A stretch of DNA of 64,000 nucleotides, taken from contig JAHPZH010000007.1 of NCBI GenBank assembly GCA_019058315.1, forward strand, positions 190,989 through 254,988, given 5' to 3'. This stretch comes from Candidatus Helarchaeota archaeon (GTDB lineage Archaea; Asgardarchaeota; Lokiarchaeia; Helarchaeales; RDOG01). Under the pieces are notes generated by a model. It saw nothing but the letters and a program-made list of their open reading frames with translations. It was not told the origin of the DNA and did not search any database. This document shows positions 45,040 to 53,147 of this stretch, piece after piece. Numbering within the stretch: position 1 is the first letter of the stretch; the number at the start of each line of letters is the position of its first letter. A program made the position numbers and the translations under genes.

Positions 45040-46914
45040 TTAGATATGATATGAAGTTCTTAATTTAAATTCTGCCTTCTTAGCGGGGTTCCACCGTTCT
45101 ACTGGTCTATAATATCCTGTAACACGACTCCATATTATAGTCTGACTATTACAAATCGGACAAGAGGGAAAATTTCCTATTAGTGTTTTCTGGCAATTTT
45201 GGCATACAGAGAGGGTTGGAGTTATGCTAAAATAAGATAAATCCGAATTTTCAGCCGTATTCTTTATGAATTTGGTGAGACCTTCTACGTTAGAAATTTC
45301 ATCCATAAATAGATGCGTTATACATCCACCAGTAAATTCCCTATGAAATTCTCCCTCAATTTTTATTTTGTCAACTATACCTTTATAATCTACAGGCAGA
45401 TGAGTGCTATTTGTATATTCTAGAACACCATTATCATTAATTGAATAATACGCCGCATCCCCAAAATCTTGATAGTCGTGAAATGCAAATCTTCCGGCTG
45501 TTTTTTCAGCTGGTGTCTGTTCTAAATTATATAACATTCTGTCTTCTCGTTGAAATTCGGCAATTCTTTCACGTATATATCTTAAGACTTTTTTTGTTAG
45601 CGCACGCCCAGCTATTGAATATATGGGTTGTCCAATATAATTCATACAAAAATCATGAAAACCGACAACTCCAATAGTATTAAAATGATTCATGAATCCA
45701 CTACAAAGGGTTCGTTGAGTCGTGGGTAATAATCCGTTATTTAAACTATGAGTTATAACTTTTCGTTTATGTTTTAATTGTTTTCGGGCAATTTCTAAAA
45801 TTTTATCTAGATTTCCGAATAAATCTCCATTTTTACGTGATATAAATCCAATTCTAGGCATATTTAAAGAAACTACTCCAATGGATCCAGTATTTTCACC
45901 AATAGCCCAAAGTCCCCCAGAATGTTTTTCTATTTCATTATAATCAATTCTTAATCGGCAACACATACTTAAGTTAGAATCGGGCTGTAGATAATCAACA
46001 TTATAATTTAGGAAATAGGGTGATCCTTTTTTAGCTGTGAGCTCCATAAGAAGTCTACCTATCTCGGAATCATATTCGAAATCTTTATCTAAAGCTATTG
46101 TAGGAATCGGAAATGTAAATGGATTACCTTTTGCATCCCCCTCTTGAATTACTTCAATGAAAGCTCTATTAACCAGAGCCATGTCTTCTTTTAATTGATC
46201 ATATGTAAAGGATTGTTCTTTGCCTCCTAATAACGCAGGCACTCCTTTATATCGTTCAGGAAGTGTCAAATCTAATGTTATATTGATAAATGGAGGTTGA
46301 TCACCATATCTTGTTGGAAAATTTAAATTGAAAACAAAATTTTGTATGTGCTGTTTTACTTGTTTATAGTCTAAATGATCTATCCTAACAAATGGGGCCA
46401 GTAGAACATCTACATCAGAAAATGCTAGTGCCCCTGCCCATTCTCGCTGAACAGTGACTATAAAATTTATCATATGGTTTAAAATTGTTTGTAGATGTTT
46501 TGCGGGTTTTGCACTTATAACTAAATCTAAACCATCCCTAATTAATTGGCGTAAATCCCATCCTGAACAATAACCACAAAATCTACTTGTCCATAGATCA
46601 TGAAGGTGAATTAATCCTACCTCATGTGCTCTTACGGCGTCTGGAGCATTTTTATATAAATCTTTTAATGCATTTCTCTTAAAATCATATTGGCTAACTG
46701 AATTCACTAGTCCGCTAAAAGATTTTCTCGTATTTGCATTATCATTTTGTACAAAAGAATCTTGAAGATATTTCTTAATCTGACTTTCGATCATATTATC
46801 AAAATTTGCTAAATCAACATGAACTGTCCTTCTAGTCGGGACTAATTCAATCTCTTCTCTTCTTAATGCCTCCACTTCAAGAATCCTATCAGGTTCTACA
46901 CTTTTATCCATCAT
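45040..46914 (-). CDS. nrdD: Class III anaerobic ribonucleoside-triphosphate reductase, no ATP cone
   Basis: HLHDL, GYC, FTFPIPT, MCCRL, TPAE, YTNS, CQNC..CPIC zinc site, SRVTGY glycyl-radical loop. Confidence 0.93.
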   Translation of the reverse strand: MMDKSVEPDRILEVEALRREEIELVPTRRTVHVDLANFDNMIESQIKKYLQDSFVQNDNANTRKSFSGLVNSVSQYDFKRNALKDLYKNAPDAVRAHEVGLIHLHDLWTSRFCGYCSGWDLRQLIRDGLDLVISAKPAKHLQTILNHMINFIVTVQREWAGALAFSDVDVLLAPFVRIDHLDYKQVKQHIQNFVFNLNFPTRYGDQPPFINITLDLTLPERYKGVPALLGGKEQSFTYDQLKEDMALVNRAFIEVIQEGDAKGNPFTFPIPTIALDKDFEYDSEIGRLLMELTAKKGSPYFLNYNVDYLQPDSNLSMCCRLRIDYNEIEKHSGGLWAIGENTGSIGVVSLNMPRIGFISRKNGDLFGNLDKILEIARKQLKHKRKVITHSLNNGLLPTTQRTLCSGFMNHFNTIGVVGFHDFCMNYIGQPIYSIAGRALTKKVLRYIRERIAEFQREDRMLYNLEQTPAEKTAGRFAFHDYQDFGDAAYYSINDNGVLEYTNSTHLPVDYKGIVDKIKIEGEFHREFTGGCITHLFMDEISNVEGLTKFIKNTAENSDLSYFSITPTLSVCQNCQKTLIGNFPSCPICNSQTIIWSRVTGYYRPVERWNPAKKAEFKLRTSYHI

Positions 46915-47281
46915 CCAACGCCTCTTTTCTGTCCATTAATTATAATTTTTTTGATTTTCCCTCTAGAGTTTTTTATCGATAAACTTACCTTTTAGCCTAA
47001 AAAACCATTATCAAAAAAATTTGATAATTTTATAAAATAAATTTGAATAAATTATTTAAACCCCACTTTATTATAAAAATATTTTTGGATAGTACTATGA
47101 AAAAAATTTTAGTGGAAAATTAGTGATTTTTGCTATATTTGTGTTAAATTAGGATCAATCAATATACATGTTTTTTCATATTTAAATCAAATTTTGATTT
47201 AATTAGTATTAATATTGAATAAAGATACACTTAATTAAATAAATAAATATTAAATTCTTCTTGTAGAGAAAAATATACAAT

Positions 47282-47428
47282 AGTTTTTTCTTTGTCATTG
47301 ACAGAATTGATGGATCCGGATTTACTACATATGGTAAATTATTAGGGGATCATTTAAAACAAAAGAGAGATGTATTTATAACTCAATAACCATCCACTAA
47401 TGAAATTGGTAATCTAATTAGAAAATGA
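47282..47428 (+). pseudogene. tmk 5' fragment 1
   Basis: Reads SFFFVIDRIDGSGFTTYGKLLGDHLKQKRDVFITQ*PSTNEIGNLIRK*, matching the first ~50 codons of tmk (52572); no start codon, internal stop. Confidence 0.88.
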
Positions 47429-47605
47429 AGAAACCTAAATCAAGAAATTTAACTTCGATATTACTTTTTCATAATCTTCAATTTCCACATATTTAAAAGC
47501 TCAACTTAAACTCCTAATTTCTTTAAATTTTTTAAATAAAATGTAATTTACTTAATGTTTTATATAAAATGGTTAATTTTTTTGATAAAAAAGGAAGTCA
47601 AAAAT
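47429..47605 (+). promoter_or_regulatory. Repeated upstream/promoter segment of 7TM genes (copies at ~49034-49211 and, partial, ~50021-50118)
   Basis: Near-identical DNA in each copy, with palindrome GTAATTTAC (47543, 49148, 50055), a TTTATA TATA-like box and AAGGAA before the ATG. Confidence 0.7.
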
Positions 47606-48322
47606 ATGTTTCCATTTGAACCTGACTATTATTTGATATTATATATTCAAGCAATAATTTGGTTTATTTTAGTTGGATTTTTAATTTATTTAATTTTTAG
47701 AAACAAATTAACCTATATTGATGAATTTAGACAGAGGATTGTTTCAGGAATTTTTTTCTTTATAATCATTATGAGTTGTATTCTAGTTTTTCAGGTTAGT
47801 CTTCAAATTCCTCAGGAAATTCTTATTATGGTATATTTAATTATGTTTATAGGTTATATAATTTTTATAGCATTAACTCTACATGGAATATCCAAACTTA
47901 TTAATTATGTCTCTTCAATTATTGATTTTGAAACAAAGAATAAAAAGAAGTTTGCTATTATATTTTCGACAATTTTAACCGCTATTCTTTCTATCATATA
48001 TGCTATCCCTAGATTAAATGATGTTATATTGCTTACTGGATTATCTTTTCAAATAATATCATGGTTAATTGTTTATTTTGCTGCTATATACACATTATTT
48101 TTACATCAAGAGATGAGAAAGATTGATTTAAATATCTTGTTATATTTTGGACTTTGTTATTTATGTATTGCTTCTAGTCAATTGCTTTCACTATTTCTGG
48201 ATTCTAGAACCGATATGTTATTTTGGGTATTTACCCTCTTATTTTTTACAGTATTAAATATCTTTTTAATCATTGGGTATTTAGATTTTAAAAATAAAGT
48301 AAATAAGGGATTAGTAAAATGA
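47606..48322 (+). CDS. 7TM membrane protein, array copy 1
   Basis: Seven hydrophobic segments; start set to ATG 47606 by alignment with paralogs (MFPFE...). Confidence 0.85.
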   Translation: MFPFEPDYYLILYIQAIIWFILVGFLIYLIFRNKLTYIDEFRQRIVSGIFFFIIIMSCILVFQVSLQIPQEILIMVYLIMFIGYIIFIALTLHGISKLINYVSSIIDFETKNKKKFAIIFSTILTAILSIIYAIPRLNDVILLTGLSFQIISWLIVYFAAIYTLFLHQEMRKIDLNILLYFGLCYLCIASSQLLSLFLDSRTDMLFWVFTLLFFTVLNIFLIIGYLDFKNKVNKGLVK

Positions 48323-48726
48323 GTAAAGATTTAATACAAGCGTATAAATTTCTACTGGATAATACTCTTTCTAGAAGTCAGGAAATACTTGGTAAAAAAT
48401 TTATCATAAAGTTAATTAAAAAAGCTGAAAATATTACCACTAAGGAGGGAATGTCATTATTAAAGGGACTAGAATATAGTAAAAAAGAGTTACAACTCGA
48501 TATACTATATAAAAACTACAATGAAAATGAAGCTGGCTATACAAAGGAAATTATTGTTGACACTTTTAATACACTCATAAAGCTAATCGATAAAGCGTTA
48601 TCTATGCTTGTGGGGAAAGATAACGCAGTAAAAATAATTAATGATGGAGTGCAAGACACTAAACTTAATCAAAAAGCTCTTTTTGAAAAAGAAAATATTG
48701 AAGAATATTTGCGTTACAAAGTATAA
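48319..48726 (+). CDS. Soluble helical partner protein, copy 1 (intact)
   Basis: ATGA overlap with 7TM copy 1; 135 aa; 114/135 identical to copy 3 by manual count. Confidence 0.85.
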   Translation: MSKDLIQAYKFLLDNTLSRSQEILGKKFIIKLIKKAENITTKEGMSLLKGLEYSKKELQLDILYKNYNENEAGYTKEIIVDTFNTLIKLIDKALSMLVGKDNAVKIINDGVQDTKLNQKALFEKENIEEYLRYKV

Positions 48727-48878
48727 AAACTGAATTGCGTAATAAGTGAATAACTCAAATATATTATTAATTCTTATTCATAAATTCATTTTAATTGTTT
48801 TCTTTAAAATTATTTTTAATTAAAATATTACATATTATTGTACAATTTAATTGATAATCAAATTTTTTGGAGAAATGA

Positions 48879-49033
48879 ATAAATATATCCTTTTTCATTG
48901 TCATTGATGGAATTGATGGATCTGGGACTACAACTTATTGTAAATTATTAGGGATCATTTAAAATAAAAGAGAGATGTATTTTTAGCTGAAGAACCATCC
49001 ACTAATGAAATTGGTAATTTAATTAGAAAATAA
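48879..49033 (+). pseudogene. tmk 5' fragment 2
   Basis: DNA near-identical to the start of tmk; ATG changed to ATA, 1-bp deletion, CAA changed to TAA; ends at the same junction as fragment 1. Confidence 0.9.
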
Positions 49034-49211
49034 AGAAACCCTAATCAAGAATTTTAACTTTAATATTACTTGTTCATAATTTTTAATTTCTAAATATTTA
49101 AAAGCTCAATTTAAACTCCTAATTCCTTTGAATTTTTTAAATAAAATGTAATTTACTTAATAGTTTATAAAAGAAGATTGATTTTTTTGATTAAAAAAGG
49201 AAGTCAAAAAA

Positions 49212-49940
49212 ATGTTTACATCAGGAACTAATTATGATTTCTTATTATATATCCAAGCAATAATTTGGTTTATATTAGCTGGATTTTTAATTTATTTAAT
49301 TAATAAAAACAAATTAACCTATGTTGATGAATTTAGACGAAAATTCGTTTCAGGAATTTACTTATTAATATTTTCCAATATTCTTACTATATTTTTTCAA
49401 GTCATCATAAAAATTCCACAAGAATTCTATTTAATATTATATAGCTTTGTGACTTTCTTAGGTGTTGGGTTTATGATATTAACACTTATTGGAATATCCC
49501 AATTAATTGATCATATTTCTTCGATAATTGATTTTGAAACAAAAAATAAAAAAAAGTACGCTATTTTAATTTCCGCAATTATAACAATAATTATTTCTAT
49601 CTTATTTGGAATAAGCAGATTAAATGATGCTACTCAGATTTCATTTATATTTGCAATTCCAATAGTTACTTTATTTTACTTTTATACTAGTACATATACG
49701 TTTTTATTACATCAAGAGATGAAAAAAATCGATCTAAATTTTCTCTTATATATATCCCTTAGTTTTTTTACTTTTGGTATAAATTTAATTCCTGGAATAT
49801 TTTTAGATATGACATCTGACGCTTTTTATTGGGTGATTATTTACTTTATAAATATTGGATTCATTCTAATTTTAATCATTGGCTATTTGGATTTTAAGAA
49901 AAAAATAAATAGAGGTTTAAATAAGAGCTCAACAAAATAA
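49212..49940 (+). CDS. 7TM membrane protein, array copy 2
   Basis: Colinear with copy 1; conserved NKLTY.DEFR, SSIIDFETKNKKK, HQEM.KIDL, IIGYLDFK. Confidence 0.85.
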   Translation: MFTSGTNYDFLLYIQAIIWFILAGFLIYLINKNKLTYVDEFRRKFVSGIYLLIFSNILTIFFQVIIKIPQEFYLILYSFVTFLGVGFMILTLIGISQLIDHISSIIDFETKNKKKYAILISAIITIIISILFGISRLNDATQISFIFAIPIVTLFYFYTSTYTFLLHQEMKKIDLNFLLYISLSFFTFGINLIPGIFLDMTSDAFYWVIIYFINIGFILILIIGYLDFKKKINRGLNKSSTK

Positions 49941-50020
49941 GTAAAGATTTAATATAAGCGTATAAATTTTTACTGGATAATACTCTTTCTAGAAGTCAGG
50001 AAATACTTGGTAAAAAGTTT
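49937..50020 (+). pseudogene. Partner protein copy 2 remnant
   Basis: ATGA changed to ATAA (start lost, upstream stop kept); CAA changed to TAA at 49955; truncated after ~28 codons and joined to the promoter segment. Confidence 0.88.
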
Positions 50021-50118
50021 GAACTCCTAATCCTTTAAATTTTTTAGATAAAATGTAATTTACTTAATGTTTTATATAAGATGGGTAATTTCGTTTATAA
50101 AAAAAGGAAATCAAAAAT

Positions 50119-50850
50119 ATGTTCCCATTTGAAGCAAATATTAGTATAATAGATATAATATTATATATCCAAGCAATTGTTTGGTTTATTTCAGCAGGAT
50201 TTTTAGTATATCTAATTAGAAAAAATAAGTTAACTTATATTGATGAATTTAGACAGAAGTTTATTCTCGCTGTTTACGTTTTACTATTAATTGGAGCTAT
50301 AAATGTAATTTTTAATATATTTATTAAAATCCCTCAACAATTCAGTTTATTATTATATCTAATTATGTTTTTATCTGATGTATTTTTTATTGCATTAACA
50401 CTAATCGGAACATCCAAATTAATGGAGTATGTTTCTTCAATAATTGACCTTGAAACAAAAAATAAGAAAAAGATTGCTTTTATAATTTCCATAATTGTAA
50501 CAATTTTTGTTTCCATTATTCATATTATTGTTAAAATAAGCTCATCTGCTACATTGGTAGCAGAAGATTATATTTTGTTTTCAATAGCTATTCTGTTTTT
50601 CTCATTTGCTGCTATCTATTTTCTATTCCTTGATCAGGAGCTGAAAAAAATCGATATAAATATTTTGAGATATTTTGGAATTAGTGTATTATTTCTCCTT
50701 TCTATTTCTTTTTCCTCAATATTTATAGATGTAGAAAGCGGTATTTTTTATTGGGTAATCGTATTCTTTGGTCTAATTGGATTAAATTTCTCTTTAATTC
50801 TGGGGTATTTGGAATTTAAAAACAAAATAAGGAAAGGATTAGCAAAATGA
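50119..50850 (+). CDS. 7TM membrane protein, array copy 3
   Basis: Same conserved loops; seven hydrophobic segments. Confidence 0.85.
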   Translation: MFPFEANISIIDIILYIQAIVWFISAGFLVYLIRKNKLTYIDEFRQKFILAVYVLLLIGAINVIFNIFIKIPQQFSLLLYLIMFLSDVFFIALTLIGTSKLMEYVSSIIDLETKNKKKIAFIISIIVTIFVSIIHIIVKISSSATLVAEDYILFSIAILFFSFAAIYFLFLDQELKKIDINILRYFGISVLFLLSISFSSIFIDVESGIFYWVIVFFGLIGLNFSLILGYLEFKNKIRKGLAK

Positions 50851-51254
50851 GTAAAGATTTAATACAAGCGTATAAATTTCTACTGGATAATACTCTTTCT
50901 AGAAGTCAGGAAATACTTGGTAAAAAATTTATCGAAAAGTTAATTAAAAAAGCGGAAAAAATTACCACTAAAGGGGGAAAATCTTTATTAAAGGGACTAG
51001 ACTACAGTAAAAAAGTGTTACAACTCGATTTATTAAATAAAAACTACGATGAAAATGAAGCTGGTTATACAAAGGAAATTATTGTTGAAACTTTTAATAC
51101 ACTCATAAAGCTAATCGATAAAGCTTTATCTATGCTTGTGGGGAAAGAATACGCCATAAAAATAATTAATGATGGAGTTCAAGACACTAAACTTAATCAA
51201 AAAGATATCTTTGAAAAAGAAAATATCGAAGACTTAATTCAAAGAATTGTATAA
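50847..51254 (+). CDS. Soluble helical partner protein, copy 3 (intact)
   Basis: ATGA overlap; 135 aa; C-terminus EDLIQRIV versus EEYLRYKV in copies 1 and 4. Confidence 0.85.
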   Translation: MSKDLIQAYKFLLDNTLSRSQEILGKKFIEKLIKKAEKITTKGGKSLLKGLDYSKKVLQLDLLNKNYDENEAGYTKEIIVETFNTLIKLIDKALSMLVGKEYAIKIINDGVQDTKLNQKDIFEKENIEDLIQRIV

Positions 51255-51300
51255 TAAGTCTTGAAAAAGAATTATCCACATAAAAGAGAAGGTAAGAAAC

Positions 51301-52017
51301 ATGTTTATTCTTGAAACTGACTATTATTTGATATTATATATTCAATCAATAATTTTATTTATTTTAGTTGGATTTTTAATTTATTTAATTACTAAAAACA
51401 AATTAACCTATGTAGATGAATTTAGACAAAAATTCGTTTTAGGAATTTACTTATATTTGTGTGGTGTGGTTATTTTGATAATATTTCAAATCATTCTCAA
51501 AATTCCACAAGAATTTTATTTAATTTTATATGGGGTTATAGTTTTATCTGAAATTGGATTCATGGCATTAACACTCCTTGGAACATCAAAATTAATTGAT
51601 TATATCTCTTCAATAATTGATTTGGAAACAAAAAATAAAAGAAACTATGCACTTTTAATTTCTGCAATTATATCAACAATCTATACCATTTTATATGGAA
51701 TATTTAATGCAAGTAATGCATCAAAACTAACTCTAATACTTTTAGTCCCATGGACTGTTTTTTTCTACTTTTTATCTTGTATATATACGCTATTCTTACA
51801 TCAAGAGATGAAAAAAATCGATTTAAAATTTCTTCTATATATCGGACTTAGTTTTTTTTGTTTGTGCTTATCTGTATTTCCTGCAATATTTTTAGATCCA
51901 AGGTCTGATCTATTTCATTTAGTGCTTAATTTATTCTTGTTGATAGGGGCAAATGTATTTTTAATCATTGGTTATTTAGATTTTAAAAATAGAATAAGTC
52001 GGGGATTAGTAAAATGA
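51301..52017 (+). CDS. 7TM membrane protein, array copy 4
   Basis: Same conserved loops; seven hydrophobic segments. Confidence 0.85.
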   Translation: MFILETDYYLILYIQSIILFILVGFLIYLITKNKLTYVDEFRQKFVLGIYLYLCGVVILIIFQIILKIPQEFYLILYGVIVLSEIGFMALTLLGTSKLIDYISSIIDLETKNKRNYALLISAIISTIYTILYGIFNASNASKLTLILLVPWTVFFYFLSCIYTLFLHQEMKKIDLKFLLYIGLSFFCLCLSVFPAIFLDPRSDLFHLVLNLFLLIGANVFLIIGYLDFKNRISRGLVK

Positions 52018-52420
52018 ATAAAGATTTAATACAAGCGTATAAATTTTTACTGGATAATACTCTTTCTAGAAGTCAGGAAATACTTGGTAAAAAATTTATC
52101 ACAAAGTTAATTAAAAAAGCTGAAAATATTACCACAAAGGGGGGAAAATCATTATTAAAGGGACTAGAATATAGTAAAAAAGAGTTACAACTCGATTTAC
52201 TATATAAAACTACAATGAAAATGAAGCTAACTATACAAAGGAAATTATTGTTGACACTTCTAATATACTCCTAAAACTGTTCGATAAAGCTTTATCCATG
52301 CTTGTGGGGAAAGAAAATGCCATAAAAATAATTAATGATGTAGTACAAGACACTAAACTTAATTAAAAAAATATCTTTGAAAAAGAAAATATCGAAGAAT
52401 ATTTGCGTTATAAGGTTTAA
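52014..52420 (+). pseudogene. Partner protein copy 4 (frameshift plus nonsense)
   Basis: A5 to A4 deletion near 52206 and CAA to TAA near 52364; homology continues to EEYLRYKV* at 52420. Confidence 0.85.
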
Positions 52421-52571
52421 AAAATTAAATTGCGAATTAAGTGAATAACTCATACGAATTCGTTATTATTATTCATAAATTCATCTTAATTGTTTTCTTT
52501 AAAATTATTTTTAATTAAAATGTTATATTATTGTATAGACTAATTGATAATCAAATTTTTTGGAGAAATGA

Positions 52572-53147
52572 ATGAATAAATCCTTTTTCATTGTTATTGA
52601 TGGAATTGATGGATCTGGGACTACAACTCATTGTAAATTATTATTAGATTGGTTAAAACAAAAAAGAGATGTTTTTTTAACTGAAGAACCATCCACTAAT
52701 GAAATTGGTAATTTAATTAAAAAATTTTTGAAAACTGCTCTTCCAGCAGCAGTGGACGCATTATTATTTGCCGCAGATAGGGTTTTACATACCATTGAGA
52801 TTAAGAAAGCATTAGAAGAAGGGAAAATAGTTATTTCTGATAGATACATAGAATCAAGTACCTGTTATCAAGGAGTGGAATTAGATGAAGAATGGATAAT
52901 AACACTTAATAAATTTGCAATTTTTCCTGATCTTACAATCATATTAGACATTAATCCTGAAATTGGATTAAAGAGAAAGGATGATACTTCAGCAAAATTT
53001 GAAAATATTCCTTTCTTAACAAAAGTAAGGGAGCTTTTTTTAAAAAGAGCTAAAAAAATGAAGTATCCTGTAATAAATACTTCCAAACCGATTGAGGAAG
53101 TTCAAACAGAGATAAGAAATCACGTTAAATCATTAATAAAAATCTGA
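52572..53147 (+). CDS. tmk: Thymidylate kinase
   Basis: GIDGSGTTT P-loop, TEEP, LLFAADR..H, ISDRY..SS..YQG, PDLTIILD. Confidence 0.92.
   Translation: MNKSFFIVIDGIDGSGTTTHCKLLLDWLKQKRDVFLTEEPSTNEIGNLIKKFLKTALPAAVDALLFAADRVLHTIEIKKALEEGKIVISDRYIESSTCYQGVELDEEWIITLNKFAIFPDLTIILDINPEIGLKRKDDTSAKFENIPFLTKVRELFLKRAKKMKYPVINTSKPIEEVQTEIRNHVKSLIKI

Follow-up and report, generated by a model that had tools for sequence, protein, structure and literature searches.

A tandem array of stand-alone seven-transmembrane proteins in a Helarchaeota-like archaeon, with a predicted helical adaptor encoded in a Rab-like GTPase operon

Background

A 64,000-nucleotide stretch of the genome of a Candidatus Helarchaeota archaeon (assembly GCA_019058315.1, contig JAHPZH010000007.1, positions 190,989 to 254,988 of the forward strand; hereafter the window, numbered from its first letter) holds, between the genes for NrdD and thymidylate kinase (tmk), four co-directional units that each open with an intact gene for a seven-transmembrane (7TM) protein. 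The second gene of each unit, intact or decayed, codes for a helical protein of 135 residues, which we term the partner (Table 1). An original prediction, made from the sequence alone, had read this array as a set of receptors, each with its own soluble partner, in which outward ligand pockets diversify over a fixed cytoplasmic face that docks one transducer. We find that the observation is real, although overstated for the partners, and that a more specific reading is partly supported, namely that the transducer belongs to a small-GTPase module. On this reading, to which we give a probability of roughly 0.5, the array provides interchangeable 7TM inputs at the membrane that are connected to a Rab-like GTPase/longin module by one common adaptor, and the system is specific to one Helarchaeota-like lineage.

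Architecture of the array

At the protein level, 7TM copies 2-4 are about 49-51% identical to copy 1, whose start was placed at ATG 47606 in preference to ATG 47555 on the alignment of the paralogs. The stop codon of the 7TM gene and the start codon of the partner share a 4-bp ATGA overlap in units 1, 3 and 4; in unit 2 the partner ATG has become ATA, thereby turning the shared TGA into TAA. The earlier claim that a copy of the 135-residue protein comes after every 7TM gene stands for units 1 and 3, where the partner is intact, and not for the other two. In unit 2 the partner has lost its start and is truncated, and in unit 4 its reading frame breaks after about codon 65. Both lesions are covered by Logan contigs with 0 differences (over window 49482-49985 and 52167-52515, respectively). 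These contigs are an independent assembly of a run in which 93% of the words of the stretch occur and which is probably the source sample, and their agreement rules out a slip of the present assembly, without being independent biology.

The two decayed fragments of tmk lie within direct repeats (D10 and D13) that they have in common with the intact tmk gene. The array is a segmental duplication in which 5' fragments of tmk were copied too, and the resemblance is far beyond chance. The two fragments show that the amplified unit formerly reached from a point ahead of the 7TM gene to within tmk; deletions that came later gave the array its present shape. Identity between units within window 47500-52500 is a mosaic at the DNA level: the partner genes and the 5' flank with transmembrane segment (TM) 1 are 85-100% identical, and the 7TM interior 41-70%. 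Likewise, the synonymous divergence (dS) between partner 1 and partner 3 is 0.18, as against 0.6-1.0 for the adjoining 7TM genes. Judged from these alignments, the simplest explanation of the mosaic would be that the partner and its flanks have undergone gene conversion.

A second sediment metagenome, run X2, has contigs about 94% identical to unit 1 at window 47782-48351. It also has a joint 48275->49891 and a back-joint 52632->47334, each on a single contig with short sides and not relied on here; the former may mean that the array is organised differently in a related population. The G+C content at window 48001-52000 is 23-24%, below that of the window flanks and the genome (27-33%), which may simply be due to membrane proteins rich in Ile, Phe, Lys and Asn. 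Rfam detects no RNA family in the window, a bacterial promoter scan, whose model is not applicable to archaea, returned fewer sites than in shuffles, and no RNA is listed among the public runs holding the stretch.

Table 1. Genes and remnants of the array with its neighbours (window positions), and the 7TM-longin-like fusion genes found elsewhere in the genome (G000, contig:positions). The fusion proteins have 335-390 residues and about seven TM segments, and their genes lie within loci L083-L090.
Feature	Position	Strand	Remarks
NrdD	45040-46914	-	left neighbour of the array
tmk 5' fragment, pseudogene remnant	47267-47389	+	upstream of unit 1; stop-to-stop frame with the tmk P-loop motif
7TM paralog 1, intact	47606-48322	+	238 residues; open reading frame (ORF) and alignment; AlphaFold2 (AF2) model
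Partner 1, intact	48319-48726	+	135 residues, helical; 4-bp ATGA overlap with 7TM stop
Second tmk 5' fragment, decayed	48879-49033	+	between units 1 and 2; two frames
7TM paralog 2, intact	49212-49940	+	242 residues; ORF and alignment
Partner remnant, unit 2	49937-50038	+	start ATA; about 30 codons, then a deletion fuses the remnant to the unit 3 upstream region
7TM paralog 3, intact	50119-50850	+	243 residues; ORF and alignment
Partner 3, intact	50847-51254	+	135 residues; 4-bp ATGA overlap with 7TM stop
7TM paralog 4, intact	51301-52017	+	238 residues; begins 46 nt past partner 3
Partner 4, frameshifted pseudogene	52014-52420	+	86-residue ORF 52014-52274; other frame 52208-52366
tmk, intact	52572-53147	+	Pfam Thymidylate_kin E 1.8e-44; original right-hand border of the duplicated unit
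7TM-longin-like fusion	G000 C5:719491-720558
7TM-longin-like fusion	G000 C5:1284350-1285447
7TM-longin-like fusion	G000 C5:1288232-1289305
7TM-longin-like fusion	G000 C5:987481-988488
7TM-longin-like fusion	G000 C11:127611-128732
7TM-longin-like fusion	G000 C3:187345-188517
7TM-longin-like fusion	G000 C10:168091-169149

Topology and fold of the 7TM proteins

The averaged hydropathy of the 7TM paralogs has seven hydrophobic segments, and seven helices are likewise present in the AF2 model, for which 15 family members were used (mean predicted local distance difference test score, pLDDT, 85.1; predicted TM-score 0.83). Lysine and arginine are distributed 15 on the predicted cytoplasmic loops and tail versus 2 outside, an asymmetry that gives an N-out/C-in topology, the one seen in G-protein-coupled receptors (GPCRs) and rhodopsins. 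TM7 (residues 204-226) has no Lys in any array copy and hence no Schiff-base Lys. Searches of Pfam and NCBIfam, along with an exhaustive search of 1.84 billion representative proteins, recovered no version fused to a kinase, a cyclase, a methyl-accepting chemotaxis protein (MCP) domain or any other domain. On all these points, namely four intact stand-alone paralogs of 238-243 residues, their orientation and the missing retinal-binding residue, the original prediction was accurate. It was likewise borne out in its contrast between invariant inner loops and variable outer halves. A nearly invariant inner face is formed by KLT[YH]xDEFR in intracellular loop (ICL) 1, YxSSIID in ICL2, KKID in ICL3 and GYLDFKNK in the C-terminal tail. 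The 15-sequence alignment has no conserved polar position in the outer half or the membrane core, and no DRY or NPxxY-type motif is present.

None of the array copies matches a 7tm family in Pfam or NCBIfam at E up to 10, and Pfam gives no match to Bac_rhodopsin, 7TMR-DISM, HisKA_7TM, 5TMR-LYT or PAQR/hemolysin III; PADLOC reports nothing for the 7TM protein or the partner. At the level of structure, an exhaustive comparison of the model with VIA placed almost exclusively GPCR 7TM domains among its top 50 (Z 13.2-10.3), with class C members in the lead: GABAB (9jqx; Z 13.2, root-mean-square deviation, rmsd, 4.4, 199 aligned residues), GPRC5D (9ima; Z 13.0, rmsd 3.4, 190 aligned residues) and GPR156 (Z 12.6), scores of about 13 being, on the calibration of VIA itself, within reach of helical bundles without kinship. 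The transporter Ost-alpha (Z 11.3) and the rhodopsin KR2 (Z 10.5) were also recovered. Foldseek against the PDB returned weak rows only, of microbial rhodopsins and GPCRs (E about 0.5, TM-score about 0.5). The fold expectation of the original prediction is thereby upheld in so far as GPCR domains top the VIA comparison, and kinship is not shown. The modelled structure shows a GPCR/rhodopsin-like arrangement, to be understood as architecture rather than homology.

The presence of Ost-alpha among the GPCR-like matches, the translational coupling of the gene pair by the ATGA overlap and the metabolic neighbours NrdD and tmk would all suit a small transporter or channel, with the 135-residue protein as its cytoplasmic regulatory or gating subunit and the GTPase operon linked to it, at most, in a regulatory way. 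We consider this improbable. With the exception of Aa_trans at E 0.18, no transporter family is matched in Pfam or NCBIfam at E up to 10; the membrane core has no conserved polar residues; invariant cytoplasmic loops combined with a wholly variable outer half would be unexpected; and the ancestral context of the partner, at no fewer than seven loci, is the GTPase operon described below.

The partner protein and its predicted docking

The model of the partner (pLDDT 87.7) comprises four long helices and a short hairpin, and its conserved motifs are two helix-Gly-helix elements, ILGxxF..KLIKKAE and KALxMLVGK. It has no match in Pfam or NCBIfam. Fold comparisons gave only poor ferritin-like rows with Foldseek against the PDB (TM-score about 0.2) and, in a wide VIA comparison, generic helical pieces (best Z 7.2) with no informative neighbour, while in Atlas the shape search reached unnamed clusters only and the feature search scores of at most 0.89.

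Predictions of the complex between the 7TM protein and the partner returned ipSAE values of 0.72, 0.72 and 0.68, as compared to 0.01 for the best of three controls, these being model confidences obtained from unpaired, shallow alignments. At that mark the test is reached by 58 of 80 solved complexes and by 2 of 110 mismatched pairs. The runs have at least 96% of their contacts in common, with a partner pLDDT of at least 81. On the 7TM side the confident contacts are all cytoplasmic and fall on ICL1 (residues 36-38), ICL2 (101-107), ICL3 (172-174) and the C-terminal tail (231-236), and on the partner side they involve residues 22-38 and 89-102. These predicted contact segments are the same as the invariant or nearly invariant motifs of both families, across paralogs and genomes. 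Docking of the partner on the conserved cytoplasmic face of the 7TM protein is therefore supported at the level of models, and with it the earlier proposal that a fixed inner face docks a single transducer.

A Rab-like GTPase operon as the context of the partner

Beyond the two intact copies in the array, the genome encodes one further intact partner, on contig C1 (locus L023), which is 57% identical and belongs to a tight same-strand cluster. The order of genes in this cluster is a 279-residue protein, the partner, a 171-residue Ras-family GTPase, a 214-residue protein, a 361-residue protein with an HTH_47 domain, two 7TM paralogs, and proteins of 240 and 182 residues; intergenic gaps are 1-23 nt up to the gene for the 361-residue protein, and 91 nt precede the first 7TM gene. 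The core of this cluster, from the 279- to the 214-residue protein, recurs in at least five other assemblies (loci L028, L047, L051, L053, L054 and L055), one of which (L054) is a metagenome-assembled genome (MAG) named Lokiarchaeota. Altogether, the partner gene directly precedes that of the Rab-like GTPase, at a distance of 1-23 nt, in seven of the eight loci outside the array, the exception being L027, which has only a 278-residue protein, the partner and the 361-residue protein. In three genomes (L023, L047 and L053) 7TM paralogs follow on the same strand; of the two copies in L047, from another Helarchaeota MAG, one is intact and the other, at L047:8832-9487 behind the operon, is frameshifted, runs through two frames and is probably a pseudogene. 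As the genome has 103 Ras-family matches in its 5.8 Mb, along with 23 roadblock matches, a single adjacency would mean little; an order kept in seven loci, on the other hand, is not due to chance. Judged by gene order, the GTPase operon is where the partner originally belonged.

The GTPase of this operon (L023:6509-7024) has a Pfam Ras match at E 1.1e-48 and complete G1-G5 motifs. Its best matches in the PDB are Rab35, Rab2A and Rab8A (E 1e-37 to 1e-35), and the Rab of Thorarchaeota (7ezb) is matched at E 1.8e-32. It has no C-terminal Cys and, consequently, no obvious lipid anchor. The remaining core proteins yield leads to longin-like regulators. In the 279-residue family, which was compared with the longin-domain Rab GEF subunits of the Mon1/Ccz1/Fuz type, Fuz_longin_1 is matched in 11 of 13 members (best E 0.002) and Clat_adaptor_s in 3 of 13, in all cases below the Pfam gathering score, and Atlas gives a longin lead with a score of 0.78. 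The 361-residue protein aligns weakly with the 279-residue protein over its N-terminal domain, has the winged helix-turn-helix (wHTH) domain HTH_47 in all five members and matches DUF742 at E 0.19, and one member of the 214-residue family matches Sedlin_N at E 0.0016. Robl_LC7 has no match in the operon core genes. A second copy of the partner domain at the C-terminus of the 279-residue protein was considered and not confirmed (hhalign E 0.097 over 28 columns). Genes for a response regulator with DUF835 and DUF7347 domains (L023:3822-4955, minus strand) and for a giant multi-PAS protein (1560-2543 residues) are divergent neighbours of the operon in L023, L047, L051 and L053.

A related domain combination emerged when the genome was screened for ORFs that combine a soluble tail with six to eight hydrophobic segments, nine of which were aligned (positions of seven family members are given in Table 1). 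Over about 125 residues at the C-terminus, these proteins share homology with the N-terminal domain of the 279-residue protein (hhalign probability 91%, E 1e-6, 120 columns); Fuz_longin_1 is matched in this region below threshold in two of the nine, and four of the nine have a Ras-family gene within about 2.5 kb. As far as profile comparisons indicate, this organism thus has the longin-like domain in two settings, as part of a 7TM fusion protein and as the product of a separate gene next to those for the partner and the stand-alone 7TM protein. This alternation of fused and separate forms is the pattern expected if the partner were an adaptor that replaces the covalent link. Kinship of the membrane part of the fusions with the 7TM family of the array is not shown (hhalign E 0.0076, probability 5%). 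On contig C11 (G000 C11:382684-385908), Ras-family genes (382684, 383693 and 385050) alternate with ORFs that have weak Fuz_longin_1 matches (384224 and 385633).

Phyletic spread and evolutionary rates

The genome, which is assembled in 12 contigs with 29-33% GC per contig, contains 13 7TM paralogs and, as against these, only the three intact partner genes named above. Four broken partner copies lie in three remnant loci, the frameshifted unit 4 copy matching as two pieces. Contrary to the original proposal, 7TM proteins and partners are not paired one-to-one: the partner is dead in two of the four array units, and 6 of the 13 paralogs have neither a partner gene nor a remnant nearby.

A search of the 1.84 billion representative proteins with a profile of the 7TM family gave 26 matches, of which about 23 are true relatives, all of them stand-alone proteins of about 240 residues. 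Two matches were rejected: P0037 (2235 residues), which is a leucine-rich repeat protein, and P0035, which matches over its first 100 residues only and has TSP3 repeats. The relatives that carry a name come from MAGs labelled Helarchaeota, Lokiarchaeota or Promethearchaeota. Pattern scans found no relative in the genome contig collection and a single 42-residue fragment in the metagenome contigs. In 399 other Asgard species genomes, six of them from the same order, no member of either family was found.

In the tree, the four array copies form one clade (100/99 support) with the paralogs at C7:99133 and C5:1154800 and one metagenomic sequence, a placement that makes the array a recent, lineage-specific expansion. 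The sister of this clade, in another MAG (L048), has no adjoining partner. The dispersed paralog C7:99133 is followed by a partner remnant (L020:6850-6960, corresponding to G000 C7:99846-99953) with the same ATG-to-ATA start as in unit 2, from which it follows that the partner was probably dead before C7:99133 dispersed. Other genes for multi-pass membrane proteins, in tandem or flanking, lie beside the paralogs C1:275550 and C5:958826 (L026:342-2057, L025:4014-5117 and L025:8422-9510), the product of the last being a member of the 7TM-longin-like fusion family.

Among six close 7TM paralogs, dS is 0.35-1.08 and the ratio of nonsynonymous to synonymous rates (omega) 0.35-0.71. Separated by topology, the outer half has a median omega of about 0.85 (range 0.40-1.38) and the inner half one of about 0.34, with similar dS; in two pairs the outer value exceeds 1 (1.38 and 1.18). 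The four intact genes and the inner-half omega of about 0.34 point to purifying selection. The outer half has stretches of more than 20 consecutive residues without a conserved position, and every helix face varies, not just a lipid-facing stripe. The partner shows a different history at each depth. Between the array partner and that of contig C1, dN is 0.24, dS 2.3 (saturated) and omega 0.11, which indicates an old divergence under constraint. Within the array, its omega is 0.5 and two of four copies are dead. Taken with the remnant at C7:99133, these values indicate that a partner gene can be dispensed with wherever another copy is present.

Such decay could alternatively be taken to mean that unstable tandem amplification around tmk gave rise to the array as a side effect, with the partners as decaying hitch-hikers and the predicted interface as a false positive. 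The locus is certainly turbulent, given its tmk fragments, deletions and two dead partners, and the partner omega of 0.5, the sister 7TM gene in L048 without an adjoining partner and the two mismatched pairs that passed the complex test all fit this scenario. We nevertheless give it little credence. Purifying selection has been kept on the inner half of the 7TM proteins, the ATGA overlap has been kept in three units, in three genomes the GTPase operon has members of both families on the same strand, and in each family the predicted contacts fall on the invariant motifs.

The variability of the outer half raises another alternative, that of a passive role. As anchors or landmarks in the membrane, the 7TM proteins would tether the adaptor and the Rab-like GTPase module, by analogy with the eukaryotic multi-pass proteins that recruit the Rab or Rag machinery, and would not be ligand receptors at all, their outer halves drifting without constraint. 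This would account for an outer omega that is near neutral with dS equal to that of the inner half, for the absence of any conserved polar residue in the outer half across 15 sequences, for docking being predicted on the inner face only, and for a GTPase that lacks a lipid anchor of its own. The persistence of 13 intact paralogs, with every 7TM gene of the array kept while partners die, suggests instead selection for 7TM diversity, and the two pairs with an outer omega above 1 speak in the same direction; on balance, we hold the anchor to be rather unlikely, albeit the likeliest of the three alternatives.

A model for the array

Our preferred reading remains that of exchangeable 7TM inputs to a shared GTPase module. 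The 7TM protein would reside in the cytoplasmic membrane, N-out/C-in in a GPCR-like arrangement, and the four-helix adaptor of 135 residues is predicted to attach, through both of its conserved motifs, to the nearly invariant inner face. The adaptor would act as a core member of the operon, which joins it to the longin-like 279-residue protein, the anchor-less Rab-like GTPase and the 214-residue protein, often with the 361-residue longin and wHTH protein and 7TM genes next to them; it may in this way couple the 7TM protein to a GTPase-regulatory module. Depending on what its variable outer half meets, the 7TM protein would then either bring the Rab-like GTPase machinery, which has no anchor of its own, to the membrane or gate its nucleotide state. 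One or a few adaptor copies may serve many 7TM variants in trans. Since all paralogs have a common docking face, adaptors could be shared between them, which would explain why adaptors decay while every 7TM gene stays intact.

Several observations weigh against this reading. No consistent pattern of covariation was found across the predicted interface at the different loci, including a charge swap between partner residues 26-27 and ICL2 of the 7TM protein, and the complex prediction has the shallow, unpaired basis stated above. No 7TM gene is found near four of the operon loci (L051, L054, L055 and L027); together with the six 7TM paralogs that lack a partner, this indicates that the coupling may be facultative. 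All longin assignments in the operon are sub-threshold leads from profile matches, and the resemblance to GPCRs is tempered by the weak Foldseek rows and by the calibration of VIA. Neither family extends beyond one narrow Helarchaeota-like clade. Finally, an outer-half omega of about 0.85 fits diversification and weak constraint equally and is no test of positive selection. The claim of diversifying outward ligand pockets is accordingly not shown, and the comparison with a eukaryotic chemoreceptor repertoire survives only as an analogy. What the analysis establishes is the structure of the genes, the size of the families, the fold class, the conserved synteny and the asymmetry of rates; binding between the 7TM protein and the adaptor is a prediction, and we infer both the coupling to the GTPase and the sensing by the outer half. 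A fully fledged prokaryotic pathway from receptor to small GTPase, in which a diversifying repertoire of GPCR-fold 7TM proteins would act through a dedicated helical adaptor on a longin-type module of guanine nucleotide exchange or GTPase-activating function and a Rab-like GTPase, is at present a tentative possibility. Its logic recurs in this genome in the direct fusions between a 7TM region and the longin-like domain.

Relationship to known signalling systems

The closest described system in logic is that of the conservons (cvn/mfp), the actinobacterial G protein systems, which comprise a membrane sensor kinase, a roadblock protein, the guanine nucleotide exchange factor CvnC/MfpC and a Ras-like GTPase and have been described as GPCR-like (PMC13343842, PMC13621833, PMC11343762). 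Conservons and the operon described here are alike in combining a membrane sensor (a putative one here), a small GTPase of the Ras superfamily, small regulators of the roadblock/longin class (likewise candidates only here) and a wHTH-type protein. However, CvnA is histidine-kinase-like, whereas the membrane protein here is a stand-alone 7TM protein of a new family without a kinase domain; the GTPase of conservons is MglA/CvnD-like and here Rab-like; and their roadblock regulators contrast with longin-type matches here, DUF742 being reached at E 0.19 only. Furthermore, conservons have no counterpart to the 135-residue helical adaptor that precedes the GTPase in the present operon.

With the eukaryotic GPCRs of class C (GABAB, GPRC5D, GPR156 and mGlu), the 7TM protein has in common the seven helices, the N-out/C-in orientation and, in the AF2 model, the way the helices are arranged (Z 13.2-11.4 over 190-200 aligned residues, rmsd 3.4-4.4 A), and the use of cytoplasmic loops and tail as a transducer surface is predicted here as well. 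GPCRs differ in their 7tm Pfam similarity and their DRY/NPxxY motifs, neither of which was found in the present family, and in signalling through a heterotrimeric G protein, in contrast to the transducer predicted here, a helical adaptor with a link to a Rab-like GTPase. A 2026 preprint based on structural clustering lists, among the families that Asgard archaea and eukaryotes have in common, four GPCR clusters together with 'a class C GPCR' and '7TM proteins' (bioRxiv 10.64898/2026.10.28.762692); these resemble the present family in their class C likeness, and the accessible part of that preprint describes no partner, array or GTPase operon. The sensory rhodopsin pair SRII-HtrII is similar in being a stand-alone archaeal 7TM protein with a separately encoded, adjacent partner. 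It differs in its retinal Lys and in a two-TM, MCP-like transducer that binds at the membrane-embedded side, as opposed to a family without a TM7 Lys and a soluble partner with predicted cytoplasmic docking.

Within the Asgard repertoire of GTPases, longin and roadblock proteins, the operon GTPase is of the Asgard Rab-like kind, as typified by the Rab of Thorarchaeota (7ezb). In MK-D1, GTPases and their regulators are generally not found in operons (PMC10933270), as opposed to the conserved operon described here, in which a GTPase is accompanied by candidate regulators and membrane proteins. A search of the literature found no paper on an operon of a 7TM protein, an adaptor and a Rab-like GTPase.

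Conclusions

Asgard archaea possess many small GTPases, about a hundred in the present genome, the switches of which are almost unknown and the regulators of which, according to published work, cannot be read from gene order. In the operon described here, a Rab-like GTPase has as neighbours a new adaptor, candidate regulators of longin type and membrane proteins shaped like GPCRs, and the predicted interface between adaptor and receptor can be mutated, offering a testable entry to the link between the membrane and a Rab-like switch in Asgard archaea. The question bears on the origin of receptor systems and of trafficking GTPase systems. The narrow clade range of both families points to a lineage-specific invention, not to an ancestor of eukaryotic GPCR signalling. 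Should the tentative pathway from receptor to small GTPase prove true, archaea would have, in previously undescribed families, their own counterpart to the switching of small GTPases by receptors.

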